From Eledone cirrhosa (Eukaryota), in contig OZ024742.1 in the NCBI GenBank assembly GCA_964016885.1, forward strand, positions 112,344,001 to 112,408,000: a DNA stretch of 64,000 nucleotides. The letters are read 5' to 3'. The position numbers and the translations under genes were made by a program. Under the pieces are notes generated by a model. The model made no database searches and was not told where the DNA came from. It worked only from the letters and a program-made list of their open reading frames with translations. The stretch's first letter is position 1. Each line of letters opens with the position of its first letter. Positions 2,093 through 54,923 of the stretch are shown here, in pieces.

Positions 2093-2589
2093 AATTCTCA
2101 AGGAATTTACCTTCTAATACCAGTACAAGAACTCTCCCTGCCACAGTCCACAAAGGTCGTCAAATCTTATTCAAACCATCATCTACACCTCTCACAACAC
2201 ACACACCCACATACACACCCACTCGAAACCCCACCATTTGCCGCTACTCTCTACGCTATAGAATATGTACGGATAGTGGCTGCAAATTCACCCATTTACC
2301 TAGGACAAAACGGACTATCCCCACAAACAGCCACCACCATAATACATACTCTAATTTAACACCAACACAACCACCAATAACTCAAACAAGGAATCCACAA
2401 ATCTGCCGCTTTTCCCTGCGAGACAGATTGTGTTTAGACCGGGATTGTCCCTTTACCCATCTCCCGGGGACCCGTCGGACAATAAGATTAAAAATAAAAG
2501 CAAAAACAAAAACCATAACCTACATAAAAATAACCACTACCACAGTCACCAACAGTCTTCTAAACAGGAAACTTCTTCCTCTTTTTTAG
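2092..2589 (+). pseudogene. LINE ORF1 C-terminal part with two tandem CCCH zinc fingers
   Basis: [19 protein letters not shown] and CRFSLRDRLCLDRDCPFTH (C-x8-C-x4-C-x3-H) directly upstream of ORF2. Confidence 0.75.
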
Positions 2590-2668
2590 CCATAATGAAT
2601 CTGGAAAAAAACATTCGAGCTATCACCCAGCACCACCCTCCACTATCACCCCACTGCACAAACTCCCA

Positions 2669-5656
2669 TTGCTGCCATTAACAAACAAACAAATTAACAA
2701 CACACCAAAACAATTAAAACCATCCACTCTCGCATCTACATTTTTGCTTAACGCCCAAGGCATCAGCCCTTCCACCAATACTAAAAAATGGAAGATCAAA
2801 TTCCTGGAGGACTGGATTGATGTACATCCAAACCACATCCCTTTCTTCGTCCTCACTGAAACCCATCTCAGTAACTTCCACGAGGTGAAAGTGAAAAATG
2901 TCAAAGCCATCCGTGCTGATCGCGCTGGCAGAAGAAAGGGCGGGACTGCCATTTATGTCCATAATTCTTTCTCAACAGAGGCTATGAACATATTCAGTAA
3001 TGGATACTGCGAAGCAGTCACTGTATTCAGTCAAACCAACAACCTAATAGTAGTTGGGCTCTATAGGCCACCCCAAACGCCTGTACCATGCTTCAAGGAA
3101 TGCCTCAACAGCATAAAGTGTTTCATCCAAGAGTGTCACCCTGACAACATCTTAATGATGGGGGACTTCAACCACCCCGGAGTTGACTGGTCCACAAACA
3201 GCCTGCCACCAGGTTCTTCTGCCTCAACCTCTGACAGGGAAGCAGTGGAATCGCTTCTTGACTTCATGGATGATTTCTTCCTGTCCCAACTGGTGCTCGA
3301 ACCAACGAGGTGCCACAAAAACGTCCTAGACTTAATTTTCAGCAATCACACTGACAATATCCACAATATTGCAGTGGAGAAAACTCTACTCTCTGATCAT
3401 GACATGGTTCTCTGTGATCTTAGATTCCACCGTCCAATATACAAACCCAATGTCATCTCTCCTGTCCATCCGTTTGACGCTATGGATTTCCACAATGCAA
3501 ACTGGGAAGCGTTCATTCATGATCTTGCACATGTCGACTGGTCCTTCACGCACACTCATACACCCACTAACATCAAAAAGTCCTGGCAGACATTTGTGGA
3601 CACTGTTACAAACATATGTGCAAAACACACCCCATTAACAACTATAAACAAATCTAAGAGCAGAATCCATAGAAATAGAAAAACGCTCATCAGGAAAATT
3701 AAGAGAACGAACAAAAAAATCAACAAGCTGAAATTCTGTCAGCAGCAACACATCAATTTGACTGCCATTTCATCACTAGAGATTAAAAAACATAACCTCC
3801 AAAACAACATGATGTCTATCATCGACAATCAGAGAAGAGCTGAAGAGGCCTGGGCCATTGAGAAGATCAAACACCAAAGTGTTCTTTTCATTTGCAAAAA
3901 AACACAAAATCACTGGCTCTACTGTTGGCCCTCTAATTGATGAAAATGGCACTCTTCAAGACAATGCTAAAACCATGGGTGAGATACTGCAGAAACAATA
4001 CTGCTCTGTTTTCAGCAATCCTGTATCGGCGATGTTACTCCCCATTACACCTTATCGGACATAACGTTTGGCGCCCCTGATGTCTTAGCGGCAATAAAGG
4101 AAATCAAGCATAATTCAGCAGTAGGTCCCGATAGGTTCCCTGCTTGTGTCTTGAAGGCGTGTCAACACCAACTTGCATCTCCACTTGCCAATCTGTGGCG
4201 GAACTCACTGGATGCTGGATATGTGCCAGAAAACCTTCTGTCCCAGTCTGTTGTTCCAGTTTTCAAAAAAGGAAACAAATCCCTTGCCGTGAATTACCGT
4301 CCAATCTCACTCACCTCTCATATCATTAAGGTATTTGAGAGAGTGGTGAGATCGCAAATGACCCACTTCCTTGAGAGTAACAATATGCTGAACTCCAACC
4401 AGCATGGATTCCGTAATGGAAGGGATTGCCTGACGCAGCTACTGCATCACTTTGATGACATTTTGAGAGCCTTGGGAGAGGGTTCCAACACTGATGTTAT
4501 CTACCTTGATTTCAGCAAGGCCTTTGACAGGGTTGATCACAACATTCTACTGAGAAAACTGTCCAATATTTGTGTCACTGGAAAGCTGCTGCAATGGATC
4601 AAGAACTTCCTGTCAAACAGAACCCAACATGTTGTAGTTGAAGGTGTCAAATCCAGCCCAGCCAAAGTCAGTAGTGGGGTCCCACAAGGCACTGTGTTAG
4701 GCCCACTTCTCTTCATCATCTATATTAATGACATCACTGACATCATCAAACACAGCAACATTAAAATTTTCGCTGATGATTCCAAGCTCCAAAAGGTCAT
4801 CAATGGCGTGGATGACCGGATAAGCCTTCAGTCAGGACTACTGGCTGTTACCCAATGGGCGGAAAAGAACAACATGTTACTGAACGAAGACAAATTCGAA
4901 CTGATCCACTTTGGGAAAGAGGATGCTCTGAAACTCCCGTACTCCCTTCCCTCCGGTGAAACTCTCGTGGCATCTAACAACATCAGAGACTTGGGAGTAA
5001 CCGTGGACAGCAACATAAGCTGGGCCACGCATATAAGCAGCAAAGTTGACATGGCCCGTAGAATGTGTTCCTGGATCCTCAGAACCTTCCAGTCGAGAGA
5101 TTCCCACACCATTATCCTTCTCTACTCTACTTTTGCCCGACCACACCTTGAATACTGTTGTCCACTGTGGTCTCCCCACACGAAACAAAGTATCATGAAA
5201 CTTGAAGCTCCTCAAAGGGCAATCACGAAAATGATAGATGGCATGTCAGACCTTGACTACTGGGGTCGACTAGAAAAGCTGAAACTTTACTCACTCCAAC
5301 GTCGCCGTGAGCGTTATATTATCTGCATGATGTGGAAAATGTTCCATCATCACTGCCCAAATGATGTTGGCATCGCCTTCAAAATACACCCAAGGCTTTG
5401 GCCCCGTGATATCCGTCCCCCCAAAAAATCTAAATCGCAACTCATAACAACAATACGGCACAATTATTTCACCTCAATTGGCCCTGCTCTCTTCAACATC
5501 ACACCAGGACACGTCAAAACAGAAAATGACCACACAAAATTCAAGAAGTCTTTGGACAAATTCCTCCAAGTAATCCCGGACAAACCACCCACACCCGAAT
5601 ATGTCTCCGCAAACAGTAATTCTCTTCTCGAATGGGCCATGGTGCCCAAATCCTGA
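2669..5656 (+). pseudogene. LINE ORF2 (apurinic endonuclease + reverse transcriptase) with about two frameshifts near 3870 and 4050
   Basis: Endonuclease: LNAQG, LTETHL, YRPP, MGDFN, LDLIF, SDH. RT: NYRPISL, QHGFR, YLDFSKAFD, GVPQGTVLGP, FADD, LQRRRERY. Confidence 0.93.
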
Positions 5657-13316: not shown

Positions 13317-16310
13317 TAAATAATACCTGGAACAAAGATACGGCCATTGAGGAAATGAATGCTGACGGACTAGGACAAGATTTGGGCGATATCCTAAACT
13401 TAGTGGTAGATGAAATGAACAATGATAATGGGAAAGCTATGAACCTAAGATTTGTAGACAGGAAAAAGTTAAAATAAAACAAGAGCTAAGGTAAAAAATG
13501 TCATACCATACATTGAGGCGAGGAGCCTTCACCAGTGCAACAATATCCTCAATGCAACAGCAAATGCGGTGAGGAAATTACTTGGCATAAAAGCGAGAGG
13601 AAATTACTTGGCATAAAAACGAGAGGAAACAACAAATATTAAGATCAGAACCTTGGTGGAAGAAACGACTGAATGGTCAAATCAGGCAAATCAGAAATGA
13701 CATTAGAAAACTTGAGTCCCTACTGAATGCGACACTAAAAAACATAGACTGGAAATAAAGTACAAAACTAGGAGGAAAACGCTAAATAATATCAGAGAGG
13801 AACTGAAGCAACGCATTGTAGCAAAGAGGGCAAAATTTAGGCGATATGAGAGCAGAGTCAGTCAGTATAGACAGAACCGCATGTTTGACAACAACCAGAA
13901 GATGTTGTTTGGACAGCTTGAAGGGAAAGAAAGAGGATACGACTTGATCCCTGAGGCTGAAAATACTAAGACATTCTGGAGAGGAATATCGGAGCAGGAT
14001 GTTAAACATAATGACCAGGCAGTGTGGTTTGAGACAGTACAAAAGGAGATTAGTGAACAGGCACACCAACAAACTCATTTGAGTATCACAGTTGAAACTC
14101 TTAAGGGGCAGGCCAAAAAACTAACCAACTGGAAATCATCAGGCCTAGATGGTGTGCGGAGGTATTGGATTAAACATATAAAATCCCTCCACTCGAAACT
14201 GACAACCATGTTCAATGACTGCTTGATGTCAGGTGAGGTACCAGAGTGGTTGACAAAAGGTACCACAGTTCAGGTAATGAAAGATATAATCAAGGGTAAT
14301 GATGTTACCAACTATAGACCTATCACATGTCTGTCCGTAATGTGGAGACTGTTAAGAAGCATTGTGTCTGAGGAAATCTACCATCACCTCCAGATAAACA
14401 ACTTGATACCGGACGAACAGAAAGGATGCCGAAAGAAGTCCCGTGGTACAAAGGACCAGTTACTTATTGATAAGATGGTAATGAGGAATTGCAGGAGGAG
14501 ACACACTAGTCTTGCTATGGGATGGATAGACTACAAAAAGGCATTCGACATGGTGCCTCATTCATGGATCACGAAAAGCCTAGAGATCTTCAAGGTGGCA
14601 GATAACATCAGACAGTTGCTGAGCAAAAGTATGAAGTCCTGGAAAACAGAGTTAACATCGGCTGGAGAATCCTTGGGAGGCGTGAAGACCAAGTGAGGTA
14701 TCTTCCAGGGAGTTAGTCAGTCCCCTCTGTCGTTTTTCCTACCTCTGATGCCCCTGACCATTATACTGGGAAAAGTGAGAGCAGGAAACACGTTGGGAAT
14801 GCGAGAGCTTACCATCGATCACCTCCTCTTCATGGACGATCTCAAGCTCTTCGGGAAGATAGAGAAGGAGTTGGATGTGCTTGTTGACACTGTCCGTATT
14901 TTCTGCAATGATATATGTACGGAATTTGGTATTATTAAGTGTGGAGTCCTTGTGATGAAGAGGGGTAAATTGAGCAGAAGCAACGGAATCCAGGTACCAA
15001 CAGGTGAGATGATAAAGGAAATTGACACTGAAGAAGGATACACATATTTAGTTGCTCTGGAGGCTGATGACATCAAGAACAAAAAAATGAAGGAATTGAT
15101 AAGATCTCAATACGTTCAGAGAGTAAGGAGCGTATTAAAATCACATCTGAACAGTAGGAATGAAAAAAAAAGAGCCGTAGAACAAAACGAAATGGATAGG
15201 AAGACTAGGAAGCTATTGACGATCTACATCATTTCCAGAAGTGGACTGATGTCCATAGACTCTACTTAATGACATTTGAAGGTGGAAGAGGTCTTATCAA
15301 CATAGAGGACTGTGTTCAGATGGAGAAAAACAACCTACACAAATACGTGACTGATAGTAGGCAACCAATGCTCAGAATTGTACTGAAGGAGAGCATAATA
15401 GACCAGGGGATGTCCAAGGAGGAAATAACAACAAGGAAAAAGAGCAACCTTCATGAAAAATCCCTTCATAGTACCTTTTTTGAGAAAACTGAATTCAGAG
15501 ATCCACAGACATGGAACTGATTGAAAAGAGGAGACCTTAAAAAGGCTACATAAGGAATGCTAATGGCTGCGCAAGAGCAGGCCTTCAAAACGAAGTGGTT
15601 GAAGCACCATATTTACAAGGAAGAGGCTAGCTCACTGTGTAGGATCTGTGGAGAGAGAGGGTAGACTGTGGCGGACATTGTATCCGAGTGTAAACACCTA
15701 GCCCAGACTGACTATAAAGGCTAGAGACATGATGTGATGGGCAGGGTGATCCACTGGGACCTATGCAAAGTAAACAAATTACCACATTCTGAGAAGTGAT
15801 ATGAGCATAAGCCAGAGTCGGTGATAAAAAACGATTAGGTGAAGGTGCTGTGTGATTTTAGGATACAGACGGACAAGAAATTGGAACACAATAGACCTGA
15901 CCTTGTGGTTTTGACTAGGAAAAAAAATCGTGCCTGATTGTGGATGTAGCGTGCCTATTCGACACGAGAGTGCAAGAGAAGGAGAGGGAGAAAATTAACC
16001 GATACCAGGACTTAAAGTGGGAGGTAAAAAGGATATGGAACTGCCATGAAGTCAAAGTGGTCCCGATTGTCATAGGCGCACTAGGTACTAACTGAAAGAG
16101 GTTCCAAGGCTGGTTAAAGAAAATGTGTCCCGCCCCGCTTTTTGGAACACTTCAAAAGGCATGCTTGCGAGGAACAGCAAGAACTCTCCGATACGTCCTG
16201 AATATCTGAGGCTGGAGGTAGTGGCTTGATATTCATTTCAAGAAACTTCCCAGTTAAATAATATCAATGACTGAGACTCAAACAACAATAATAATAATAA
16301 TAATAATAAT
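13317..16310 (+). mobile_element. R4/Dong-clade LINE (RT + restriction-like endonuclease), 5'-truncated, multiple stops and frameshifts
   Basis: NYRPITCL, EQKGCRK.SRGTKDQLLID, WIDYKKAFDMVPHSW, HLLFMDDLKLF, GGRGL, CRICG zinc knuckle, RHD, HNRPD, VVPIVIGALG; (TAA)n tail at 16288-16310, as expected for Dong. Confidence 0.9.
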
Positions 16311-16588: not shown

Positions 16589-17023
16589 GTAATTGAACAA
16601 GTACTTTCATGCTTTCGCAATCTTCAGGTTCATAGTGTGTGGTGACAGTCAAGTTTACAATGTTCAACTGTAATGAGATGGGTAAATTGTGTATCTTATA
16701 TACAGTGAAATTTGGCTCCAGAATGCTAAATCTTGCAAACTTTATTTCGACCAACCGGTCGAAATACAGTTTGCAAGATTTAGCATTCTGGAGCCATTTT
16801 TCACTGTATATAAGTTACAAAATTTACCCATCTCATTACAGTTGAAAATTGTAATTTTGACTGTCACCACACATTATGAACATGAAGATTGCGAAAGCAT
16901 GAAAGTACTTGTTTAATTAACACTTACAATTTAATATTCTATCATACTATTTCATTATGATACCATTATAATTTTTAAAGGATTGTAAATAAAACAAGTA
17001 AATCAGACAAAGTTGGAATTCCT

Positions 17024-17027
<4 letters not shown>
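16589..17027. mobile_element. Palindromic head-to-head HHR-bearing non-autonomous element (same family as 51934-52320)
   Basis: Arms 16589-16752 and 16757-16918 are inverted. HHR on minus 16594-16632 (TGAAC-CTGAAGA-TTGC GAAA GCAT-GAAAG TA CTT-GTTCA); core-mutated copy on plus 16877-16915. Confidence 0.85.
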
Positions 17028-17071
<44 letters not shown>

Positions 17072-17104
17072 CATACAAATATGTATATATATATATATAT
17101 ATAT

Positions 17105-20100
17105 ATTGGAATAAATGCTCTGAAATAGCGATATATATGTGAATATAGACATAGAATATTCGAAAATATTCTGTATGTTTATAATAAACATTTTGAAGAC
17201 CTAATCGCTATATAATAGAATACGTCACGTATTACAATTAGATTCTCGATAAAAGCAAGGGAAGTAATCTACGCGTTTCATTCTCATTAGAAATCATCAG
17301 GACTACATATCCAGTGCTTTTATCGAGAATGACACAGCTAGAGACTTATAGAATACTTAGCTGTGTACAGGAACTGGTTTGAAAGAGCGGTTGCCGGTCC
17401 GGCAGAAATTAGAAATTGGAATAAATGCTCTGAAATAGCGATATATATGTGAATATAGACATAGAATATTCGAAAATATTCTGTATGTTTATAATAAACA
17501 TTTTGAAGACCTAATCGCTATATAATAGAATACGTCACGTATTACAATTAGATTCTCGATACAAGCAAGGGAAGTAATCTACGCGTTTCATTCTCGTTAG
17601 AAATCATCAGGACTACATATCCAGTGCTTTTATCGAGAATGACACAGCTAGAGACTTATAGAATACTTAGCTGTGTACAGGAACTGGTTTGAAAGAGCGG
17701 TTGCCGGTCCGGCAGAAATTAGAAATTGGAATAAATGCTCTGAAATAGCGATATATATGTGAATATAGACATAGAATATTCGAAAATATTCTGTATGTTT
17801 ATAATAAACATTTTGAAGACCTAATCGCTATATAATAGAATACGTCACGTATTACAATTAGATTCTCGATAAAAGCAAGGGAAGTAATCTACGCGTTTCA
17901 TTCTCGTTAGAAATCATCAGGACTACATATCCAGTGCTTTTATCGAGAATGACACAGCTAGAGACTTATAGAATACTTAGCTGTGTACAGGAACTGGTTT
18001 GAAAGAGCGGTTGCCGGTCCGGCAGAAATTAGAAATTGGAATAAATGCTCTGAAATAGCGATATATATGTGAATATAGACATAGAATATTCGAAAATATT
18101 CTGTATGTTTATAATAAACATTTTGAAGACCTAATCGCTATATAATAGAATACGTCACGTATTACAATTAGATTCTCGATAAAAGCAAGGGAAGTAATCT
18201 ACGCGTTTCATTCTCGTTAGAAATCATCAGGACTACATATCCAGTGCTTTTATCGAGAATGACACAGCTAGAGACTTATAGAATACTTAGCTGTGTACAG
18301 GAACTGGTTTGAAAGAGCGGTTGCCGGTCCGGCAGAAATTAGAAATTGGAATAAATGCTCTGAAATAGCGATATATATGTGAATATAGACATAGAATATT
18401 CGAAAATATTCTGTATGTTTATAATAAACATTTTGAAGACCTAATCGCTATATAATAGAATACGTCACGTATTACAATTAGATTCTCGATAAAAGCAAGG
18501 GAAGTAATCTACGCGTTTCATTCTCGTTAGAAATCATCAGGACTACATATCCAGTGCTTTTATCGAGAATGACACAGCTAGAGACTTATAGAATACTTAG
18601 CTGTGTACAGGAACTGGTTTGAAAGAGCGGTTGCCGGTCCGGCAGAAATTAGAAATTGGAATAAATGCTCTGAAGTAGCGATATATATGTGAATATAGAC
18701 ATAGAATATTCGAAAATATTCTGTATGTTTATAATAAACATTTTGAAGACCTAATCGCTATATAATAGAATACGTCACGTATTACAATTAGATTCTCGAT
18801 AAAAGCAAGGGAAGTAATCTACGCGTTTCATTCTCGTTAGAAATCATCAGGACTACATATCCAGTGCTTTTATCGAGAATGACACAGCTAGAGACTTATA
18901 GAATACTTAGCTGTGTACAGGAACTGGTTTGAAAGAGCGGTTGCCGGTCCGGCAGAAATTAGAAATTGGAATAAATGCTCTGAAATAGCGATATATATGT
19001 GAATATAGACATAGAATATTCGAAAATATTCTGTATGTTTATAATAAACATTTTGAAGACCTAATCGCTATATAATAGAATACGTCACGTATTACAATTA
19101 GATTCTCGATAAAAGCAAGGGAAGTAATCTACGCGTTTCATTCTCGTTAGAAATCATCAGGACTACATATCCAGTGCTTTTATCGAGAATGACACAGCTA
19201 GAGACTTATAGAATACTTAGCTGTGTACAGGAACTGGTTTGAAAGAGCGGTTGCCGGTCCGGCAGAAATTAGAAATTGGAATAAATGCTCTGAAATAGCG
19301 ATATATATGTGAATATAGACATAGAATATTCGAAAATATTCTGTATGTTTATAATAAACATTTTGAAGACCTAATCGCTATATAATAGAATACGTCACGT
19401 ATTACAATTAGATTCTCGATAAAAGCAAGGGAAGTAATCTACGCGTTTCATTCTCGTTAGAAATCATCAGGACTACATATCCAGTGCTTTTATCGAGAAT
19501 GACACAGCTAGAGACTTATAGAATACTTAGCTGTGTACAGGAACTGGTTTGAAAGAGCGGTTGCCGGTCCGGCAGAAATTAGAAATTGGAATAAATGCTC
19601 TGAAATAGCGATATATATGTGAATATAGACATAGAATATTCGAAAATATTCTGTATGTTTATAATAAACATTTTGAAGACCTAATCGCTATATAATAGAA
19701 TACGTCACGTATTACAATTAGATTCTCGATAAAAGCAAGGGAAGTAATCTACGCGTTTCATTCTCGTTAGAAATCATCAGGACTACATATCCAGTGCTTT
19801 TATCGAGAATGACACAGCTAGAGACTTATAGAATACTTAGCTGTGTACAGGAACTGGTTTGAAAGAGCGGTTGCCGGTCCGGCAGAAATTAGAAATTGGA
19901 ATAAATGCTCTGAAATAGCGATATATATGTGAATATAGACATAGAATATTCGAAAATATTCTGTATGTTTATAATAAACATTTTGAAGACCTAATCGCTA
20001 TATAATAGAATACGTCACGTATTACAATTAGATTCTCGATAAAAGCAAGGGAAGTAATCTACGCGTTTCATTCTCGTTAGAAATCATCAGGACTACATAT

Positions 20101-23100
20101 CCAGTGCTTTTATCGAGAATGACACAGCTAGAGACTTATAGAATACTTAGCTGTGTACAGGAACTGGTTTGAAAGAGCGGTTGCCGGTCCGGCAGAAATT
20201 AGAAATTGGAATAAATGCTCTGAAATAGCGATATATATGTGAATATAGACATAGAATATTCGAAAATATTCTGTATGTTTATAATAAACATTTTGAAGAC
20301 CTAATCGCTATATAATAGAATACGTCACGTATTACAATTAGATTCTCGATAAAAGCAAGGGAAGTAATCTACGCGTTTCATTCTCGTTAGAAATCATCAG
20401 GACTACATATCCAGTGCTTTTATCGAGAATGACACAGCTAGAGACTTATAGAATACTTAGCTGTGTACAGGAACTGGTTTGAAAGAGCGGTTGCCGGTCC
20501 GGCAGAAATTAGAAATTGGAATAAATGCTCTGAAATAGCGATATATATGTGAATATAGACATAGAATATTCGAAAATATTCTGTATGTTTATAATAAACA
20601 TTTTGAAGACCTAATCGCTATATAATAGAATACGTCACGTATTACAATTAGATTCTCGATAAAAGCAAGGGAAGTAATCTACGCGTTTCATTCTCGTTAG
20701 AAATCATCAGGACTACATATCCAGTGCTTTTATCGAGAATGACACAGCTAGAGACTTATAGAATACTTAGCTGTGTACAGGAACTGGTTTGAAAGAGCGG
20801 TTGCCGGTCCGGCAGAAATTAGAAATTGGAATAAATGCTCTGAAATAGCGATATATATGTGAATATAGACATAGAATATTCGAAAATATTCTGTATGTTT
20901 ATAATAAACATTTTGAAGACCTAATCGCTATATAATAGAATACGTCACGTATTACAATTAGATTCTCGATAAAAGCAAGGGAAGTAATCTACGCGTTTCA
21001 TTCTCGTTAGAAATCATCAGGACTACATATCCAGTGCTTTTATCGAGAATGACACAGCTAGAGACTTATAGAATACTTAGCTGTGTACAGGAACTGGTTT
21101 GAAAGAGCGGTTGCCGGTCCGGCAGAAATTAGAAATTGGAATAAATGCTCTGAAATAGCGATATATATGTGAATATAGACATAGAATATTCGAAAATATT
21201 CTGTATGTTTATAATAAACATTTTGAAGACCTAATCGCTATATAATAGAATACGTCACGTATTACAATTAGATTCTCGATAAAAGCAAGGGAAGTAATCT
21301 ACGCGTTTCATTCTCGTTAGAAATCATCAGGACTACATATCCAGTGCTTTTATCGAGAATGACACAGCTAGAGACTTATAGAATACTTAGCTGTGTACAG
21401 GAACTGGTTTGAAAGAGCGGTTGCCGGTCCGGCAGAAATTAGAAATTGGAATAAATGCTCTGAAATAGCGATATATATGTGAATATAGACATAGAATATT
21501 CGAAAATATTCTGTATGTTTATAATAAACATTTTGAAGACCTAATCGCTATATAATAGAATACGTCACGTATTACAATTAGATTCTCGATAAAAGCAAGG
21601 GAAGTAATCTACGCGTTTCATTCTCGTTAGAAATCATCAGGACTACATATCCAGTGCTTTTATCGAGAATGACACAGCTAGAGACTTATAGAATACTTAG
21701 CTGTGTACAGGAACTGGTTTGAAAGAGCGGTTGCCGGTCCGGCAGAAATTAGAAATTGGAATAAATGCTCTGAAATAGCGATATATATGTGAATATAGAC
21801 ATAGAATATTCGAAAATATTCTGTATGTTTATAATAAACATTTTGAAGACCTAATCGCTATATAATAGAATACGTCACGTATTACAATTAGATTCTCGAT
21901 AAAAGCAAGGGAAGTAATCTACGCGTTTCATTCTCGTTAGAAATCATCAGGACTACATATCCAGTGCTTTTATCGAGAATGACACAGCTAGAGACTTATA
22001 GAATACTTAGCTGTGTACAGGAACTGGTTTGAAAGAGCGGTTGCCGGTCCGGCAGAAATTAGAAATTGGAATAAATGCTCTGAAATAGCGATATATATGT
22101 GAATATAGACATAGAATATTCGAAAATATTCTGTATGTTTATAATAAACATTTTGAAGACCTAATCGCTATATAATAGAATACGTCACGTATTACAATTA
22201 GATTCTCGATAAAAGCAAGGGAAGTAATCTACGCGTTTCATTCTCGTTAGAAATCATCAGGACTACATATCCAGTGCTTTTATCGAGAATGACACAGCTA
22301 GAGACTTATAGAATACTTAGCTGTGTACAGGAACTGGTTTGAAAGAGCGGTTGCCGGTCCGGCAGAAATTAGAAATTGGAATAAATGCTCTGAAATAGCG
22401 ATATATATGTGAATATAGACATAGAATATTCGAAAATATTCTGTATGTTTATAATAAACATTTTGAAGACCTAATCGCTATAGAATAGAATACGTCACGT
22501 ATTACAATTAGATTCTCGATAAAAGCAAGGGAAGTAATCTACGCGTTTCATTCTCGTTAGAAATCATCAGGACCACATATCCAGTGCTTTTATCGAGAAT
22601 GACACAGCTAGAGACTTATAGAATACTTAGCTGTGTACAGGAACTGGTTTGAAAGAGCGGTTGCCGGTCCGGCAGAAATTAGAAATTGGAATAAATGCTC
22701 TGAAATAGCGATATATATGTGAATATAGACATAGAATATTCGAAAATATTCTGTATGTTTATAATAAACATTTTGAAGACCTAATCGCTATAGAATAGAA
22801 TACGTCACGTATTACAATTAGATTCTCGATAAAAGCAAGGGAAGTAATCTACGCGTTTCATTCTCGTTAGAAATCATCAGGACCACATATCCAGTGCTTT
22901 TATCGAGAATGACACAGCTAGAGACTTATAGAATACTTAGCTGTGTACAGGAACTGGTTTGAAAGAGCGGTTGCCGGTCCGGCAGAAATTAGAAATTGGA
23001 ATAAATGCTCTGAAATAGCGATATATATGTGAATATAGACATAGAATATTCGAAAATATTCTGTATGTTTATAATAAACATTTTGAAGACCTAATCGCTA

Positions 23101-24209
23101 TAGAATAGAATACGTCACGTATTACAATTAGATTCTCGATAAAAGCAAGGGAAGTAATCTACGCGTTTCATTCTCGTTAGAAATCATCAGGACCACATAT
23201 CCAGTGCTTTTATCGAGAATGACACAGCTAGAGACTTATAGAATACTTAGCTGTGTACAGGAACTGGTTTGAAAGAGCGGTTGCCGGTCCGGCAGAAATT
23301 AGAAATTGGAATAAATGCTCTGAAATAGCGATATATATGTGAATATAGACATAGAATATTCGAAAATATTCTGTATGTTTATAATAAACATTTTGAAGAC
23401 CTAATCGCTATAGAATAGAATACGTCACGTATTACAATTAGATTCTCGATAAAAGCAAGGGAAGTAATCTACGCGTTTCATTCTCGTTAGAAATCATCAG
23501 GACCACATATCCAGTGCTTTTATCGAGAATGACACAGCTAGAGACTTATAGAATACTTAGCTGTGTACAGGAACTGGTTTGAAAGAGCGGTTGCCGGTCC
23601 GGCAGAAATTAGAAATTGGAATAAATGCTCTGAAATAGCGATATATATGTGAATATAGACATAGAATATTCGAAAATATTCTGTATGTTTATAATAAACA
23701 TTTTGAAGACCTAATCGCTATAGAATAGAATACGTCACGTATTACAATTAGATTCTCGATAAAAGCAAGGGAAGTAATCTACGCGTTTCATTCTCGTTAG
23801 AAATCATCAGGACCACATATCCAGTGCTTTTATCGAGAATGACACAGCTAGAGACTTATAGAATACTTAGCTGTGTACAGGAACTGGTTTGAAAGAGCGG
23901 TTGCCGGTCCGGCAGAAATTAGAAATTGGAATAAATGCTCTGAAATAGCGATATATATGTGAATATAGACATAGAATATTCGAAAATATTCTGTATGTTT
24001 ATAATAAACATTTTGAAGACCTAATCGCTATAGAATAGAATACGTCACGTATTACAATTAGATTCTCGATAAAAGCAAGGGAAGTAATCTACGCGTTTCA
24101 TTCTCGTTAGAAATCATCAGGACCACATATCCAGTGCTTTTATCGAGAATGACACAGCTAGAGACTTATAGAATACTTAGCTGTGTACAGGAACTGGTTT
24201 GAAAGAGCG
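17105..24209 (-). repeat. 310-bp tandem array, left arm (~22.9 units), retrozyme-like, HHR on minus strand
   Basis: Exact 310-bp periodicity (17105, 17415, 17725...), near-identical units, one HHR per unit (first at 17260-17312). Confidence 0.95.
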
Positions 24210-27200
24210 TATAAGTCTCTAGCTGTGTCATTCTCGATAAAAGCACTGGATATGTGGTCCTGATGATTTCTAACGAGAATGAAACGCGTAGATTACTTCC
24301 CTTGCTTTTATCGAGAATCTAATTGTAATACGTGACGTATTCTATTCTATAGCGATTAGGTCTTCAAAATGTTTATTATAAACATACAGAATATTTTCGA
24401 ATATTCTATGTCTATATTCACATATATATCGCTATTTCAGAGCATTTATTCCAATTTCTAATTTCTGCCGGGCCGGCAACCGCTCTTTCAAACCAGTTCC
24501 TGTACACAGCTAAGTATTCTATAAGTCTCTAGCTGTGTCATTCTCGATAAAAGCACTGGATATGTGGTCCTGATGATTTCTAACGAGAATGAAACGCGTA
24601 GATTACTTCCCTTGCTTTTATCGAGAATCTAATTGTAATACGTGACGTATTCTATTCTATAGCGATTAGGTCTTCAAAATGTTTATTATAAACATACAGA
24701 ATATTTTCGAATATTCTATGTCTATATTCACATATATATCGCTATTTCAGAGCATTTATTCCAATTTCTAATTTCTGCCGGACCGGCAACCGCTCTTTCA
24801 AACCAGTTCCTGTACACAGCTAAGTATTCTATAAGTCTCTAGCTGTGTCATTCTCGATAAAAGCACTGGATATGTGGTCCTGATGATTTCTAACGAGAAT
24901 GAAACGCGTAGATTACTTCCCTTGCTTTTATCGAGAATCTAATTGTAATACGTGACGTATTCTATTCTATAGCGATTAGGTCTTCAAAATGTTTATTATA
25001 AACATACAGAATATTTTCGAATATTCTATGTCTATATTCACATATATATCGCTATTTCAGAGCATTTATTCCAATTTCTAATTTCTGCCGGACCGGCAAC
25101 CGCTCTTTCAAACCAGTTCCTGTACACAGCTAAGTATTCTATAAGTCTCTAGCTGTGTCATTCTCGATAAAAGCACTGGATATGTGGTCCTGATGATTTC
25201 TAACGAGAATGAAACGCGTAGATTACTTCCCTTGCTTTTATCGAGAATCTAATTGTAATACGTGACGTATTCTATTCTATAGCGATTAGGTCTTCAAAAT
25301 GTTTATTATAAACATACAGAATATTTTCGAATATTCTATGTCTATATTCACATATATATCGCTATTTCAGAGCATTTATTCCAATTTCTAATTTCTGCCG
25401 GACCGGCAACCGCTCTTTCAAACCAGTTCCTGTACACAGCTAAGTATTCTATAAGTCTCTAGCTGTGTCATTCTCGATAAAAGCACTGGATATGTGGTCC
25501 TGATGATTTCTAACGAGAATGAAACGCGTAGATTACTTCCCTTGCTTTTATCGAGAATCTAATTGTAATACGTGACGTATTCTATTCTATAGCGATTAGG
25601 TCTTCAAAATGTTTATTATAAACATACAGAATATTTTCGAATATTCTATGTCTATATTCACATATATATCGCTATTTCAGAGCATTTATTCCAATTTCTA
25701 ATTTCTGCCGGACCGGCAACCGCTCTTTCAAACCAGTTCCTGTACACAGCTAAGTATTCTATAAGTCTCTAGCTGTGTCATTCTCGATAAAAGCACTGGA
25801 TATGTGGTCCTGATGATTTCTAACGAGAATGAAACGCGTAGATTACTTCCCTTGCTTTTATCGAGAATCTAATTGTAATACGTGACGTATTCTATTCTAT
25901 AGCGATTAGGTCTTCAAAATGTTTATTATAAACATACAGAATATTTTCGAATATTCTATGTCTATATTCACATATATATCGCTATTTCAGAGCATTTATT
26001 CCAATTTCTAATTTCTGCCGGACCGGCAACCGCTCTTTCAAACCAGTTCCTGTACACAGCTAAGTATTCTATAAGTCTCTAGCTGTGTCATTCTCGATAA
26101 AAGCACTGGATATGTGGTCCTGATGATTTCTAACGAGAATGAAACGCGTAGATTACTTCCCTTGCTTTTATCGAGAATCTAATTGTAATACGTGACGTAT
26201 TCTATTCTATAGCGATTAGGTCTTCAAAATGTTTATTATAAACATACAGAATATTTTCGAATATTCTATGTCTATATTCACATATATATCGCTATTTCAG
26301 AGCATTTATTCCAATTTCTAATTTCTGCCGGACCGGCAACCGCTCTTTCAAACCAGTTCCTGTACACAGCTAAGTATTCTATAAGTCTCTAGCTGTGTCA
26401 TTCTCGATAAAAGCACTGGATATGTGGTCCTGATGATTTCTAACGAGAATGAAACGCGTAGATTACTTCCCTTGCTTTTATCGAGAATCTAATTGTAATA
26501 CGTGACGTATTCTATTCTATAGCGATTAGGTCTTCAAAATGTTTATTATAAACATACAGAATATTTTCGAATATTCTATGTCTATATTCACATATATATC
26601 GCTATTTCAGAGCATGTATTCCAATTTCTAATTTCTGCCGGACCGGCAACCGCTCTTTCAAACCAGTTCCTGTACACAGCTAAGTATTCTATAAGTCTCT
26701 AGCTGTGTCATTCTCGATAAAAGCACTGGATATGTGGTCCTGATGATTTCTAACGAGAATGAAACGCGTAGATTACTTCCCTTGCTTTTATCGAGAATCT
26801 AATTGTAATACGTGACGTATTCTATTCTATAGCGATTAGGTCTTCAAAATGTTTATTATAAACATACAGAATATTTTCGAATATTCTATGTCTATATTCA
26901 CATATATATCGCTATTTCAGAGCATTTATTCCAATTTCTAATTTCTGCCGGACCGGCAACCGCTCTTTCAAACCAGTTCCTGTACACAGCTAAGTATTCT
27001 ATAAGTCTCTAGCTGTGTCATTCTCGATAAAAGCACTGGATATGTGGTCCTGATGATTTCTAACGAGAATGAAACGCGTAGATTACTTCCCTTGCTTTTA
27101 TCGAGAATCTAATTGTAATACGTGACGTATTCTATTCTATAGCGATTAGGTCTTCAAAATGTTTATTATAAACATACAGAATATTTTCGAATATTCTATG

Positions 27201-27827
27201 TCTATATTCACATATATATCGCTATTTCAGAGCATTTATTCCAATTTCTAATTTCTGCCGGACCGGCAACCGCTCTTTCAAACCAGTTCCTGTACACAGC
27301 TAAGTATTCTATAAGTCTCTAGCTGTGTCATTCTCGATAAAAGCACTGGATATGTGGTCCTGATGATTTCTAACGAGAATGAAACGCGTAGATTACTTCC
27401 CTTGCTTTTATCGAGAATCTAATTGTAATACGTGACGTATTCTATTCTATAGCGATTAGGTCTTCAAAATGTTTATTATAAACATACAGAATATTTTCGA
27501 ATATTCTATGTCTATATTCACATATATATCGCTATTTCAGAGCATTTATTCCAATTTCTAATTTCTGCCGGACCGGCAACCGCTCTTTCAAACCAGTTCC
27601 TGTACACAGCTAAGTATTCTATAAGTCTCTAGCTGTGTCATTCTCGATAAAAGCACTGGATATGTGGTCCTGATGATTTCTAACGAGAATGAAACGCGTA
27701 GATTACTTCCCTTGCTTTTATCGAGAATCTAATTGTAATACGTGACGTATTCTATTCTATAGCGATTAGGTCTTCAAAATGTTTATTATAAACATACAGA
27801 ATATTTTCGAATATTCTATGTCTATAT
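24210..27827 (+). repeat. 310-bp tandem array, inverted right arm (~11.7 units)
   Basis: Reverse complement of the left-arm unit; junction GAAAGAGCG|TATAAGTCTC at 24209/24210; ends in (TA)n. Confidence 0.95.
24248..24300 (+). ncRNA. Minimal type I hammerhead ribozyme of the 310-bp unit (representative copy)
   Basis: GGAtatGTGGTC-CTGATGA-tTTCT AACG AGAAt-GAAAC GC GTA-GATTACtTCC; palindromic stem III ACGCGT; predicted cleavage after 24290. Confidence 0.92.
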
Positions 27828-27849
27828 ATACATATATATATATATAAAT

Positions 27850-27900
<51 letters not shown>

Positions 27901-27903
<3 letters not shown>

Positions 27904-31570: not shown

Positions 31571-34126
31571 CATTGACATGGATACCTTTCTAAACAAACT
31601 GCGCACCACTAACGGGATTATTGTCAAAGCGGATAAAACATCTAACGTGTACAAAATTGACATTAATACTTACTACGACCTCATACGAAAGGAATTACAT
31701 AAACACATATAAGAAAACCAATAACAAAGCACTACTTAACATCAACAAACAAGCACGCCATATTGTCAAAAGTCTAGAACTTGAAGATAGACCTGAGCCC
31801 ATGACAACTTGCACCCCCACCTTTAATCTTAAGGACCACAAATTAGTTTTCCTAGATAATCCCACTATTAGATTAATATGCCCATCTAAGTCAGACATAG
31901 ATAAAATTAGCAAGCATATTTTAGATAGAATAATAATACAATTAAGGAATAAACTAGTTATTAACCTTTGGGACAATACTAGCGACACAATTAAATGGTT
32001 TAATAGTATAGATAACAAAAATACCTCTAACTTTATACAATTCGACATTAATGACTATTACTCCTCCATATCACCCGATACACTAAACAAGGCACTAGAA
32101 TTTGCGAAAGCCAACTCTGACTTAACCGACGACGAAATAAACATTATCCTAGCAGCTAGAAAGACGATAATTAAATTTGAAAATAACTTTTGGATACGTA
32201 AGGATAGAATAGATAATTTGACATAACTATGGGTGCTAATGACTCAGCACAAGTTACGGATATTGTTGGTATATACATAGCCCACACCTTACATAATAAA
32301 GTTAGTCACCTTCAAGGCGGAATATATAGAGATGACGCTCTCCTATCAGTTAAAAACATGAATAAACAAAACATAGAACGAATCCGTAAGAGCATTAGAA
32401 GAACCCTAGATCGCCTCGGCCTTAAAACCACCTACGAATATAGTACCAAAGTAGTTAACTTCCTAGATGCCACCTTCAACCTCAACACCCAAATTATCAC
32501 ACCCTTTCACAAAAAACAATGAGAACCTCAACTACATCCACACTAGCTCTAACCACCCACTATCTATTATAAGGTCCGTACCACATAGTATATCACTTAG
32601 AATATCCCACCTCTCATCTAACCAACAAATATTCAATCAACACGCTGAATACTACAACACTGCATTAGAACGGGCTGGCCACACCGACAAACTAGAATAC
32701 ATGGACCCAAACAACCATAAAACACATAACCACAGACACGCCAAACGCCCCACAAACACCCGCACACACGCACCTAGACCCCCTAATACTAACCACACCA
32801 CAAATAAAACTGCAACATCAAAGCAAAACAGAACACGGAGTAGATCTTACATTTTGTATAATCCTATTTTTAACTCTTCTATTAGCTCTAACTTACCTTC
32901 CACATTCTACAAAATTATAAAAAAAACACTTTCCAAATTCCCATAAATATAATAGTATACTTAATACCAAAACAATTAGACTATCTTATTCCACTGCACC
33001 AAACCTAGACGCACACATTAAGATGCTCAACGCCAAAAAACTCCGTAACAACAACAGCCCAATCACTCAACACAATAATACACCTAATACACAACCACCC
33101 ACTAACAATCAGTATGCACAAAACACACTCACACACACATCCCAACCCACCTATAACTCCACAATTGCCCATAACAGAAATTGTAATTGCCACCTTCCAG
33201 AGACTTGTCCATTGAATAACGAATGTTTGCATTCAAACCAAGTGTACAGGTCCTCGGTTGAGTCGGGCAACCAAACCTGGCACTACATAGGCAGCACTGC
33301 AAACACCTTCAAAACTCGTTCGTACACGCATCGTTACGCATTAAATCTCCACCAACACCGTTACGTAACGACTCTCGCCGACAAAATTTGGCACTTAAAA
33401 GGGAGTAACCGACAATACACCCTTAAATGGACCAAACTCTCACATGCTCCTCCATACCGGAGTGGGATGAAAATGTGCCCGTTGTGTAATAATTAGCTCT
33501 TCCATATCCTAAGCTCAAGCCACCAACTACTCAACAACAAAATTGAAAGGTCAATTTTTTGCCAGCATTAACTGAAGGCGAAATTCTCACACTTCAAACC
33601 TTCAACCAAATCCTAACACTACCTATCTTTCTACCCTAAATAACAATTATACACCCCTAAAAATAGACTATATATGAAATTTAATACTTTCTTCCTTCAT
33701 CTATTCTCTGGTAAGACTTTCGCCTGTCCACTTCCAAATGCCTCTTAAAATTCTATCTTCCTTCTCTCTCCCTCTACTCATCACAACTTTTAGCACATAA
33801 CCCTCCTTTCCCTCCCTATACAAATCCTCTCACACAACACTATCTCTTTCTCTTTCTCTCCCTACCTCCACCCCTTTTCTCTCTCTCTCTCCTCTCTTTT
33901 GCCCCTCTCTCTCTCTGTTCCTCTATCTTACACTACTACCCCTTATTTCATTTCCTAAGATCATTCCAACTTTGTAATTTGAAAATTCAGATGCTACAGT
34001 ATCTTTCTTGATTGCCTATTATAACATAGTGTAGCAATAATGGACTGAAATTCTGATGAAACAATTGTTAATAGGTGGAATAAATTATTTTGTAACTGTT
34101 TACCTTCGTCCTATTTCTCTTCTTTG
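31571..34126 (+). mobile_element. Naiad-clade Penelope-like element (RT + GIY-YIG), 5'-truncated and frameshifted
   Basis: KADKTSNVY, RLICPSKSDI, FIQFDINDYYSSI, MGANDSAQ, GIYRDDAL, NFLDATFNL, YIHTSSNHP, CNC....CPL...C, YIGSTANTFKTR, CPLC; pyrimidine-rich 3' UTR ending at (TA)n. Confidence 0.88.
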
Positions 34127-34221
<95 letters not shown>

Positions 34222-35195: not shown

Positions 35196-35201
<6 letters not shown>

Positions 35202-37424
35202 TGAAACAAAATGAAAACGAAATTTCATTTCTCACTCTTAGTATGGCACTTACTTAAATGTAAGTATGCATGTATACGTACATACATATATGTATACAGA
35301 CGTACAGTAGCATGCACATATATATATATATATATACACATATACATACATATGCATACAGGTACACATACATATATGCACGTATCAGTTTAGCGGCGCT
35401 AACGTCGCTTTGTTCGTTTGTAAACAAACTGAACAGCCTCAATTTATGCCATACGGTGTTAAGGCAACCACGTCACCTTTTTGTTCAACACTGACACAGT
35501 AACGATGTACTAGTTTCAAGCTTGTTAGCTATCATCAGCACCGTTTACCCATCTGCCAGATAGTTGAACGTTCGAAAGTATATACTTTCCTTATGAAAAT
35601 TAACGGCTGAGCAGCCTAATTTGCATATTGAGTGAGTTAAATCGGTCAGGCATACCGAAAACGATAAATTGAATCAGAATGAAAACGAAATTTCATTTCT
35701 CACTCTTAGTATGGCACTTACTTAAATGTAAGTATGCATGTTTACGTACAAACATATATGTATACAGACGTACAGTAGCATGCACATATATATATATATA
35801 TATACATATATACATACATATGCATACAGGTACACATACATATATGCACGTATCAGTTTAGCGGCGCTAACGTCGCTTTGTTCGTTTGTAAACAAACTGA
35901 ACAGCCTGAATTTATGCCATACGGTGTTAAGGCAACCACGTCACCTTTTTGTTCAACACTGACACAGGAACGATGTACTAGTTTCAAGCTTGTTAGCTAT
36001 CATCAGCACCGTTTACCCATCTGCCAGATAGTTGAACGTTCGAAAGTATATACTTTCCTTATGAAAATTAACGGCTGAGCAGCCTAATTTGCATATTGAG
36101 TGAGTTAAATCGGTCAGGCATACCGAAAACGATAAATTGAAACAAAATGAAAACGAAATTTCATTTCTCACTCTTAGTATGGCACTTACTTAAATGTAAG
36201 TATGCATGTATACGTACATACATATATGTATACAGACGTACAGTAGCATGCACATATATATATATATATATACACATATACATACATATGCATACAGGTA
36301 CACATACATATATGCACGTATCAGTTTAGCGGCGCTAACGTCGCTTTGTTCGTTTGTAAACAAACTGAACAGCCTCAATTTATGCCATACGGTGTTAAGG
36401 CAACCACGTCACCTTTTTGTTCAACACTGACACAGTAACGATGTACTAGTTTCAAGCTTGTTAGCTATCATCAGCACCGTTTACCCATCTGCCAGATAGT
36501 TGAACGTTCGAAAGTATATACTTTCCTTATGAAAATTAACGGCTGAGCAGCCTAATTTGCATATTGAGTGAGTTAAATCGGTCAGGCATACCGAAAACGA
36601 TAAATTGAATCAAAATGAAAACGAAATTTCATTTCTCACTCTTAGTATGGCACTTACTTAAATGTAAGTATGCATGTTTACGTACAAACATATATGTATA
36701 CAGACGTACAGTAGCATGCACATATATATATATATATATATACATATATACATACATATGCATACAGGTACACATACATATATGCACGTATCAGTTTAGC
36801 GGCGCTAACGTCGCTTTGTTCGTTTGTAAACAAACTGAACAGCCTGAATTTATGCCATACGGTGTTAAGGCAACCACGTCACCTTTTTGTTCAACACTGA
36901 CACAGGAACGATGTACTAGTTTCAAGCTTGTTAGCTATCATCAGCACCGTTTACCCATCTGCCAGATAGTTGAACGTTCGAAAGTATATACTTTCCTTAT
37001 GAAAATTAACGGCTGAGCAGCCTAATTTGCATATTGAGTGAGTTAAATCGGTCAGGCATACCGAAAACGATAAATTGAAACAAAATGAAAACGAAATTTC
37101 ATTTCTCACTCTTAGTATGGCACTTACTTAAATGTAAGTATGTATGTATACGTACATACATATATGTATACAGACGTACAGTAGCATGCACATATATATA
37201 TATATATATATATACATATATACATACATATGCATACAGGTACACATACATATATGCACGTATCAGTTTAGCGGCGCTAACGTTCGCTTTGTTCGTTTGT
37301 AAACAAACTGAACAGCCTGAATTTATGCCATACGGTGTTAAGGCAACCACGTCACCTTTTTGTTCAACACTGACACAGGAACGATGTACTAGTTTCAAGC
37401 TTGTTAGCTATCATCAGCACCGTT
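35196..37424 (-). repeat. 468-bp tandem array, left arm (~4.8 units), HHR on minus strand
   Basis: Unit starts at 35196, 35664, 36132, 36600, 37070; each contains the reverse complement of the HHR at 37522. Confidence 0.93.
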
Positions 37425-37451
37425 AATTTCAGCTGCTCACCGTTAATTTCA

Positions 37452-38279
37452 GCTGCTCAGCCGTTAATTTTCATAAGGAAAGTATATACTTTCGAACGTT
37501 CAACTATCTGGCAGATGGGTAAACGGTGCTGATGATAGCTAACAAGCTTGAAACTAGTACATCGTTCCTGTGTCAGTGTTGAACAAAAAGGTGACGTGGT
37601 TGCCTTAACACCGTATGGCATAAATTCAGGCTGTTCAGTTTGTTTACAAACGAACAAAGCGACGTTAGCGCCGCTAAACTGATACGTGCATATATGTATG
37701 TGTACCTGTATGCATATGTATGTATATATGTATATATATATATATATATGTGCATGCTACTGTACGTCTGTATACATATATGTATGTACGTATACATGCA
37801 TACTTACATTTAAGTAAGTGCCATACTAAGAGTGAGAAATGAAATTTCGTTTTCATTTTGTTTCAATTTATCGTTTTCGGTATGCCTGACCGATTTAACT
37901 CACTCAATATGCAAATTAGGCTGCTCAGCCGTTAATTTTCATAAGGAAAGTATATACTTTCGAACGTTCAACTATCTGGCAGATGGGTAAACGGTGCTGA
38001 TGATAGCTAACAAGCTTGAAACTAGTACATCGTTCCTGTGTCAGTGTTGAACAAAAAGGTGACGTGGTTGCCTTAACACCGTATGGCATAAATTCAGGCT
38101 GTTCAGTTTGTTTACAAACGAACAAAGCGACGTTAGCGCCGCTAAACTGATACGTGCATATATGTATGTGTACCTGTATGCATATGTATGTATATATGTA
38201 TATATATATATATATATGTGCATGCTACTGTACGTCTGTATACATATATGTATGTACGTATACATACATGCATACTTAC

Positions 38280-38281
<2 letters not shown>
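37452..38281 (+). repeat. 468-bp array, inverted right arm (~1.8 units)
   Basis: Reverse complement of the left-arm unit; ends in (TA)n. Confidence 0.93.
37522..37566 (+). ncRNA. Minimal type I hammerhead ribozyme of the 468-bp unit (representative copy)
   Basis: AACGGTG-CTGATGA-tAGCT AACA AGCTt-GAAAC TA GTA-CATCGTT; palindromic stem III ACTAGT. Confidence 0.92.
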
Positions 38282-38608: not shown

Positions 38609-38679
38609 TGACGTACATGGGAGTCGAACCCACGTCTTTGGTTATCGCGACCACTGTGCTACCATTACACCAACACATC
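38609..38679 (-). pseudogene. tRNA-like sequence (tRNA pseudogene or SINE head)
   Basis: Cloverleaf GATGTGT/GTACGTC, D arm GTGT-AATGGTA-GCAC (A box), anticodon arm TGGT/ACCA, T arm GTGGG-TTCGACT-CCCAT (B box); several G-U pairs and no U33. Confidence 0.7.

Positions 38680-40425: not shown

Positions 40426-40511
<86 letters not shown>

Positions 40512-40513
<2 letters not shown>

Positions 40514-43320: not shown

Positions 43321-43322
<2 letters not shown>
40512..43322 (-). mobile_element. Penelope-like element (RT + GIY-YIG), 5'-truncated, single in-frame stop
   Basis: ORFs 42328-43320 and 41089-42237 are in one frame, split by TAG at 42328-42330 (continues YAFSLDVVSLYT). Motifs LSLGPKF, IRPIVS, GLPMGSSLS, RYVDD, LLDF, VVYRLECDRCNNFYVGST, KEALII. 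Both ends in (TA)n. Confidence 0.92.
40671..40708 (-). ncRNA. Minimal hammerhead in the PLE 3' pLTR region
   Basis: Minus TCCCT-CTGAAGA-aGAGAT ATT ATCTC-GAAA ATTA-AGGA; loopless palindromic stem III would need a dimer. Confidence 0.6.
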
Positions 43323-43392
<70 letters not shown>

Positions 43393-51837: not shown

Positions 51838-51933
51838 TATACATATATTATATATACATATATATTATATATATATCTATATATATATATAGGTAAATAT
51901 ACACGGGTGTGTATTATTGTGTATAGAATATTA

Positions 51934-52315
51934 TATTAATAAAAGAAATTCCAACTTTGTCTGATTTATTCGTGTTATTTACAATCATTTAAAATGTATA
52001 AATGGTATTAGAATGAAATAGTATGGTAGAATATTAAATGTTAAGTGTTAATTGAACAAGTACTTTCATACTTTCGCAATCTTCAGGTTCAGATTCTATG
52101 GTGACAGTCAAGTTTGCAATGTTCAACTGTTGAAAATTGTAAACTCGACTGTCACCACAGAACATGAACCTGAGGATTGCGAAAGCATGAAAGTACTTGT
52201 TCAATTAAAACTTAACATTTAATATTCTATCATACTATTTCATTCTAATACCATTATAAATTTTAAAGGATTGTAAATAACACGAATAAATCAGACAAAG
52301 TTGGAATTCCTTTTA

Positions 52316-54912: not shown

Positions 54913-54923
54913 TCTTTTGACAC

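Follow-up and report, generated by a model that had tools for sequence, protein, structure and literature searches.

Paired, fixed outer ends of head-to-head 310-bp hammerhead arrays in Eledone cirrhosa, likely written by a Penelope-type enzyme from both ends of a broken target

Metazoan non-LTR retrozymes are non-coding tandem units of 150-450 bp with a GC content below 45% and one type I hammerhead each, and the available parts of the relevant papers describe them as having no ORF, LTR, PBS or PPT (PMC7229834, PMC7761336). According to the same partial texts and a preprint, they are dispersed as dimers to multimers and co-occur with Penelope-like elements (PLEs), whose enzyme was proposed to carry out rolling-circle reverse transcription of the retrozyme circle (PMC7229834, PMC7761336, bioRxiv 10.64898/2026.07.22.740005). 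The PLE link of retrozymes was thus already proposed (bioRxiv 10.64898/2026.07.22.740005, in the part available), and circular RNA was demonstrated for other retrozymes (PMC7229834, available sections). No motif points to the mobilising element, according to the accessible portion of PMC7761336, and the role of PLEs as mobilisers of animal retrozymes rested on co-occurrence and on similarity to pLTRs.

PLE insertions often carry an inverted, 5'-truncated copy together with a 30-40-bp tail at one end, and some PLE clades favour (TA)n targets, as stated in the available text of two papers (PMC8557442, PMC3846280). In work with purified PLE protein, both strands of the target were cut and extended, and synthesis began at two neighbouring positions inside the RNA that have no homology to the DNA; the tail is the sequence between these two start sites, and the protein is predicted to be dimeric (PMC11167929). 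No difference in start site between the strands was observed there (PMC11167929). Inversion was ascribed to self-priming, and the tail to endonuclease resolution or alternative starts, but the accessible portions of these texts do not assign one start to each end of a single insertion event (PMC3846280, PMC8557442, PMC11167929). The origin of the inverted repeats with a one-end tail has been called unresolved in the sections of the PLE literature at hand.

Retrozymes, their proposed PLE link, inverted pLTRs, the tail and the two start sites are already known. A literature search, mostly of papers outside subscription, did not turn up any account of retrozyme arrays with two arms, of the pairing rule described below or of twin priming in PLEs, and older PLE papers may state parts of these. 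In twin priming of L1, reportedly described by Ostertag and Kazazian in 2001, both target ends are said to prime cDNA on the sense RNA, which leaves an inversion whose 3' ends point outward and whose junction shows microhomology; the second primer reportedly lands at a variable internal site, and such inversions are said to be a minority. Unlike in L1 twin priming, the 310-bp unit has its second site at a fixed distance of about 35 nt, and its insertions are as a rule two-armed.

The window analysed here is a stretch of 64,000 nt from Eledone cirrhosa (contig OZ024742.1, positions 112,344,001 to 112,408,000), and the coordinates below are positions within it. Both flanks of the locus are repetitive. 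A left (TA)n target tract (17026..17104), which likewise serves as the 3' flank to an older palindromic element with a hammerhead (16590-17025), is followed by a left arm on the minus strand (17105..24209, 22.9 units), a right arm on the plus strand (24210..27827, 11.7 units) and a right (TA)n target tract (27828..27901). With phase 1 of the 310-bp unit set at position 24210, the left arm has its inner 5' end at phase 272 and its 3' end at phase 246, and the right arm runs from a 5' end at phase 1 to a 3' end at phase 208. The hammerhead-sense strand is minus in the left arm and plus in the right, so that both 3' ends face outward onto (TA)n, as a preliminary description of this DNA had stated. 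That description was also correct in the letters it gave for the outer ends, in placing these ends at different unit positions, neither of them at the predicted cleavage site (phases 246 and 208 versus a cut after 81), in noting microhomology with (TA)n at both (2 nt left, 5 nt right), and in calling the inner junction clean and asymmetric. The joint at 24209/24210 (24171..24210) is blunt, with 0 nt shared and 0 inserted, and a 39-nt spacer (24171-24209) separates the palindrome arms. Absent from the earlier account was a haplotype switch within the left arm, where the outer 17 copies (17105..22264, minus) carry haplotype A (47A, 138A) and the inner 6 copies (22483..24209, minus) carry haplotype B, that of the whole right arm; the change falls in the interval 22265..22482 (minus). 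A 38-nt tail (phases 209-246; 17105..17142, minus) is present at the left end only, with no counterpart at the right end.

The repeat unit has 35% GC, and the array contains no ORF of at least 150 aa. One type I hammerhead motif per unit can be read from the sequence. In the first right-arm unit (24254..24296, plus, as are all positions of the motif), the 5' strand of stem I lies at 24254-24259 (phases 45-50, paired with 82-87), followed by CTGATGA (24260-24266, phases 51-57), which from the consensus we take to be the core, by a short stem II, and by GAAACGCGTA with a palindromic minimal stem III (24281-24290, phases 72-81). A further helix of 16 bp prolongs stem I (24230-24245 paired with 24303-24318), and the predicted cut is after phase 81, here after 24290. 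The fold of the unit is more stable than 100 of 100 shuffles (z = -3.6). Rfam called no match, the motif lying below the gathering score, and the 11 core positions were changed in 0 of 33 array-wide variants versus 5 of 120 singletons, a difference that is not significant. The 310-bp unit is retrozyme-like, with a predicted type I hammerhead, and resembles metazoan retrozymes in its non-coding tandem unit, its size, its low GC, the hammerhead in each unit and its dispersal, with about 1,000 exact T-end junctions (see below) genome-wide. Circles and cleavage have been demonstrated for metazoan retrozymes; in the 310-bp unit cleavage is a prediction from the sequence, and the signs of a circle are indirect. 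In the accessible texts retrozymes are described as head-to-tail arrays only (the word 'inverted' occurs 0 times in the available part of PMC7229834 and once, in a reference title, in that of PMC7761336), whereas the 310-bp arrays have two arms, and their outer ends are fixed, paired and of PLE type.

The outer phases had been regarded as arbitrary, a view that did not survive comparison with other loci, since 246 and 208 belong to the two fixed end sites of the family. The T site lies mostly at phase 246-253 and the N site mostly at phase 208-220, with an offset of about 35 nt. A similarity search of the 3.0-Gb genome itself (40 of 195 candidates scored, 150 of 305 matches listed) gave 22 loci, and the window plus 19 fetched loci made up a similarity-only set of 21 insertions, 20 of them head-to-head and 1 single-armed. 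In this set, free of choice on ends, all 41 outer ends fell inside two short intervals of the 310-nt unit, and 20 of 20 two-armed insertions had one T and one N end. Among all fetched loci 95 two-armed insertions were found, 2 of them cut by the end of a stretch; the 93 complete ones, including this locus (246/208), were T/N without exception; 40 of these had entered the set as pattern pairs. The tabulation leaves out L087 (which duplicates L125 and lies next to a gap), the second L077 pair (the same as L121) and arms shorter than 40 nt. The T and N arms stood in one order in 49 insertions and in the other in 44, a tail of 30-40 bp was present at one end only in 93 of 93 (38 nt here), and no tail-to-tail junction occurred among the fetched loci.

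Exact end patterns were found genome-wide 1034 times for phase 246, 1208 times for phase 211 (too high a count, because a C212T variant matches in internal copies as well) and 497 times for phase 220, and the reversed control patterns of the three end junctions gave 0 matches. In C1:1-256 Mb, the region common to all three end-pattern lists, coordinates alone gave 67 minus-then-plus pairs, comprising 65 T/N, 0 T/T and 2 matched as N/N; one of the latter (L133) was T/N once fetched, and 39 bp outside the other lies a match to the T end. The first 40 of the 87 ends left over from this pairing formed a one-end-chosen set with 27 two-armed insertions (26 complete, T/N in 26 of 26), 9 single-armed ones (8 N, 1 T), 2 with an inverted stub of 12-20 nt, 1 that abuts a gap and 1 duplicate. 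Exact ends on (TA)n (n = 174, many of them pattern-chosen) were divided into 84 at 208-220 and 90 at 246-253, and all outer ends lie on (TA)n or a few bases off. Target homology is often just 1-2 nt, as at phases 246, 248 and 211, and since so little suffices the start sites appear to be set by the RNA. Arbitrary outer phases are ruled out by the fixed T and N sites across the fetched loci. Of what the preliminary description expected from other arrays, the outward 3' ends were confirmed, while permuted outer phases and priming by TA microhomology failed, only the inner 5' ends being permuted. It had also set fixed ends with random orientation against its own reading; the ends are indeed fixed, but orientation is non-random.

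Paired outer ends at about ninety sites indicate that a Penelope-type enzyme likely copies RNA from both broken target ends in one event, and that the insertion was likely written by a borrowed Penelope-like RT/endonuclease. The offset of about 35 nt between the T and N sites matches the PLE tail (PMC11167929), which gives the 310-bp insertions a PLE-type signature. They share with EN+ PLEs bearing an inverted pLTR the head-to-head layout, 5' truncation, one-end tail, (TA)n targets, two adjacent start sites and a hammerhead in the repeat. Unlike those elements, they have no ORF (no RT or GIY-YIG) and their arms are arrays of up to 27 units; unlike the published accounts of EN+ PLEs, they offer a near-obligate, measurable pairing and arm haplotypes that trace the template. 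The reading that we consider likely is that a separate cDNA is primed from either end of the cut (TA)n, one at each start site, and that repair joins the two. The borrowed enzyme would cut both strands of a (TA)n tract, and a dimer on one RNA may hold the two target ends at the T and N start sites, so that both free ends would be extended on the RNA from sites about 35 nt apart. Each cDNA would then run over several units, either rolling on a ribozyme-made circle or passing along an uncleaved multimer, and would drop off at random, after which host end-joining would presumably fuse the two cDNA 3' ends and fill in the second strands. The proposal already made for this locus, that a (TA)n break primed synthesis on its two sides, has gained in the fixed T/N pairing a support beyond what had been predicted, and the link then drawn to the inverted pLTRs of PLEs is supported by the fixed ends, the one-end tail and coding PLEs with the same rule.

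The arms of one insertion usually match. In 54 of 57 loci the majority haplotype of one arm is also that of the other, against a mean of 6.6 and a maximum of 16 over 10,000 shuffles, in a test of loci with at least 2 units per arm from which L064, L111, L050, L061 and L108, mis-chained or cut, were left out. Such agreement could also be accounted for if one cDNA folded back, or a self-primed antisense template was used (PMC3846280, in the part available), the second arm being a DNA copy and the tail coming from endonuclease resolution (PMC8557442, likewise from partial text). Fold-back could account for the 6 inner B copies at this locus, and with a long loop would share variants in the outer register, as is seen in L104, L131 and L141. 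This locus is, however, an exception, its arms having started on different haplotypes (left A, right B), and L038 likewise has arms that begin on different haplotypes; because the outer parts of the arms differ in both, neither arm was copied from the other. Fold-back would also need an extra rule for one T and one N end each time, and the longer arm can be either one (N in 24 insertions, T in 41, with the arms within one unit of each other in 28 of 93). Arm lengths are only weakly correlated between arms (Spearman 0.21).

Minor variants were mirrored across the inner junction in 0 of 44 cases and common to both arms in the outer register in 2 of 68, and 38 of 40 minor substitutions in the overlap of the arms were unshared, which speaks against fold-back but tests it only if these variants are RT errors. 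A sense-strand excess of T>C over A>G (17 versus 4, p = 0.014, or 17 versus 6 in another subset; post hoc) weakly hints that many of them are. Their counts per locus are overdispersed (p = 0.0002), suggesting that some arose after insertion; further noisy loci were left out of both tests. Fold-back is on these grounds unlikely, and the earlier alternative of one cDNA switching strand is disfavoured in general and excluded for the outer parts of this locus by their different haplotypes. A preformed palindromic template would make inner junctions recur, but 91 of the 93 are distinct.

Within two-sided priming, the template is a question of its own. For a private variant to fill an entire array, the template must have passed through a bottleneck of one unit, which favours a circle; the circular template that had been suggested is plausible for the 310-bp arrays, and on balance we lean towards a circle as what is usually copied, multimers serving in some of the events. 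Two-sided priming might instead always take place on linear, uncleaved multimer transcripts of genomic arrays, without a circle. Each arm of L141 begins with two outer copies of one haplotype, followed by copies of another, the order being the same in both arms, and L104 and L131 each have a one-copy variant common to both arms in the outer register, as expected from a linear multimer; these three loci argue against a monomer circle as the sole template. In vitro, the reaction mainly used uncleaved RNA, and insertion was not lowered by mutating the hammerhead (PMC11167929). Of the two loci whose arms are discordant, one has a T arm that ends 64 nt before the N start phase and the other a T arm that ends 7 nt beyond it, which would fit L1-type twin priming on one linear RNA (n = 2). 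Linear copying by itself can only shorten arrays, however, and 16 of 22 haplotypes were found at one locus only, yet fill all copies of both arms. The lengths of 78 arms, which average 4.6 units and reach 27, also follow an exponential distribution (KS p = 0.38), and 5' ends do not accumulate in this analysis as would be expected at the end of a donor, and only 4 of 184 inner 5' ends lie within 3 nt of the ribozyme cut, about 4 being expected, so that there is no excess there. An exclusively linear template is therefore a tenable but less probable reading. At this locus the left cDNA would have begun on haplotype A and moved to B after 17 units; this switch fits either a jump between two circles or a single chimeric A/B multimer, in which case the right cDNA would have started further upstream on the linear molecule.

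The inner junctions look like repair products. Microhomology of at least 3 nt was found in 26 of 71 versus 6.6% expected by chance, inserts are present in 21 of 92, and the insert of L045 is a copy of host DNA about 470 bp beyond its left end. The 184 inner 5' ends fall on 130 distinct phases, mildly clumped (chi-square p = 0.014) with a peak at 94-124; arm-length and phase statistics leave out L064, L068 and L070. A fixed relation between where one arm stops inside and where the other starts, of the kind that the offsets of 64 and 65 nt at this locus might suggest, did not hold in general, differences and sums of the inner phases being uniform (Rayleigh p = 0.64 and 0.54).

Satellite amplification at the DNA level, in which a short insertion grows by slippage or unequal exchange and the inversion is made in repair, has some footing in duplications seen at L069 and L220, which repeat whole blocks including the TA flanks, and at L121, which has two variants repeated seven units apart. 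Such recognisable duplications are rare, however, and amplification gives neither paired fixed ends, nor the same rule in coding PLEs, nor arrays with private variants that are nearly all single-copy, making it very improbable.

No contig listed for sample S1 crosses the junction 24209/24210, and no independent read across it was found, as would be the case if the inversion were a fold-back read or an assembly artefact. S1 is nearly without the 47G variant of this locus and is thus probably another individual; it holds many variant contigs of the unit, with a summed depth near 400,000. Contigs of that sample end on (TA)n at phases 220 (at least 10 contigs) and 251 among the ends listed, and the strand switch of L041 was found in two of its runs. 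Together with arms that differ in their unique flanks, lengths and haplotypes, and with one biological rule across 93 loci, this makes an artefact very unlikely, its probability being close to negligible. Among the runs listed, the unit was found in at least 20 runs of at least 17 studies, none of them an RNA run. Runs X4, X5 and X11 each gave one 340-nt cyclic contig (depth 365, 6.7 and 34), and raw reads of X23, with the organism label of X4, contained the unit 0 times in 1% of the run; these single contigs fit cross-sample carry-over and are not taken as evidence of horizontal spread.

Two protein-coding PLE families of the Eledone cirrhosa genome obey the same T/N pairing rule. An element encoding 905 aa with RT and GIY-YIG domains (Pfam) has ends 44 nt apart and was T/N in 14 of 15 two-ended loci and N/N in 1 (22 examined). 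A second coding family, which from its motifs we take to be PLE-like, has ends about 128 nt apart and was T/N in 6 of 6 complete loci (24 examined); Pfam gave no match for its two fragments in the window. A 468-bp hammerhead family, with one copy inside the 64,000-nt window, gave 11 T/N and 1 N/N among the 12 readable of 21 loci (by eye), and a diverged relative of the 310-bp unit was T/N in 9 of 9 (15 examined). The 310-bp arrays carry the insertion signature of PLEs, although any target-site duplication would be masked by the (TA)n repeat. The near-obligate rule of one T and one N end, in about 130 insertions of five families, gives a sharp prediction for the in vitro PLE system, in which the 310-nt unit would be a substrate for testing the pairing; its arm haplotypes trace the template.

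A broader reading, to which we give an even chance, is that PLE integration is by default a paired, two-sided reaction in which an RT dimer on one RNA extends the two ends of a cut microsatellite from two fixed adjacent sites, and that this alone would explain both inverted pLTRs and the one-sided tail. Ribozyme circles would exploit this reaction: with the two subunits rolling on one and the same circle of 310 nt, palindromic arrays of several kb would have been made at an estimated 1,500-2,000 sites, a figure extrapolated from C1. The present locus would record the jump of a subunit between circles.

Some observations stand against two-sided priming by a PLE-type enzyme. N/N exceptions occur in 1 of 15 PLE loci and 1 of 12 loci of the 468-bp family, and 9 of the 40 one-end-chosen loci are single-armed. 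The start-site data in the available part of PMC11167929 do not explain an enforced pairing of one T with one N.

A partner PLE was sought through junction inserts, two PLE protein searches, the diverged relative and an element with a similar hammerhead, and none was found; in the three coding families sampled, of very many candidates, there was no autonomous PLE with the end sequences of the unit. Another head-to-head element has a 28-nt hammerhead match to the unit, with no ORF seen upstream of it. Just 5' of the N site, a hairpin at phases 179-198 (27798..27817, plus strand) is a candidate protein-binding signal, and in two diverged relatives its fold is kept while the letters of the stem are changed (three sequences only).

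Several other elements carry hammerhead motifs or share sequence with the 310-bp unit, both in the window and elsewhere in the E. cirrhosa genome. Diverged relatives (L071:1-460, L211-L224 and L243; 1203 candidates) have in common with the unit its 3' half, including the hairpin and both end sites, and differ from it in the 5' half, which contains a long stem III-like palindrome. A hammerhead core near-identical to that of the unit is also found in an abundant element present at L257:4231-4900 and at many further loci. This element has its own pair of ends, about 70 nt apart, and frequently occurs as small palindromes; no ORF was seen within 1.5 kb upstream at 16 loci.

Within the window, a second hammerhead-bearing tandem family, with a 468-bp unit, occupies positions 35199-38280 and, as an additional fragment, the sequence from 38826 onward; it has 623 candidates genome-wide. 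Its ends lie about 60 nt apart in phase, and its arrangement is likewise head-to-head, on (TA)n. A third hammerhead-bearing element forms short head-to-head palindromes at 16590-17025 and about 51890-52320, and the 310-bp array inserted into the (TA)n where the former copy ends.

Two protein-coding Penelope-like element (PLE) families are represented in the window. The first, encoding RT and GIY-YIG domains (21,803 candidates), is present as a degraded copy at 40511-43431 on the minus strand; copies outside the window have open 905-aa frames and are arranged either in partial tandems, about 3.16 kb in size, or in head-to-head pairs. The second, PLE-like family has left a remnant at 31594-34127 on the plus strand, and its tail, of about 128 nt, is unusually long. 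Its C-terminal part yielded 65,205 candidates, among them a 67% identical subfamily in whose 3' region no hammerhead core was seen. Further features are a tRNA-like sequence within (TA)n tracts (38609-38679, minus strand, 41 bits) and degraded ORFs at 2564-5656, 13716-15269 and 54921-57299, which by their motifs we label LINE-like and Helitron-like.

Three sequencing runs bearing other organism labels (X4, X5 and X11) each yielded a single cyclic contig of 340 nt, near-identical between them, that represents the unit. It is likely the result of carry-over, although it may reflect low-copy presence.

Some loci were duplicated at the DNA level after insertion. At L069 and L220 the TA flanks are repeated along with whole blocks, and at L121 two variants recur in a seven-unit repeat. 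At another locus a 272-nt insert (L078:1617-1888) occupies the inner junction.
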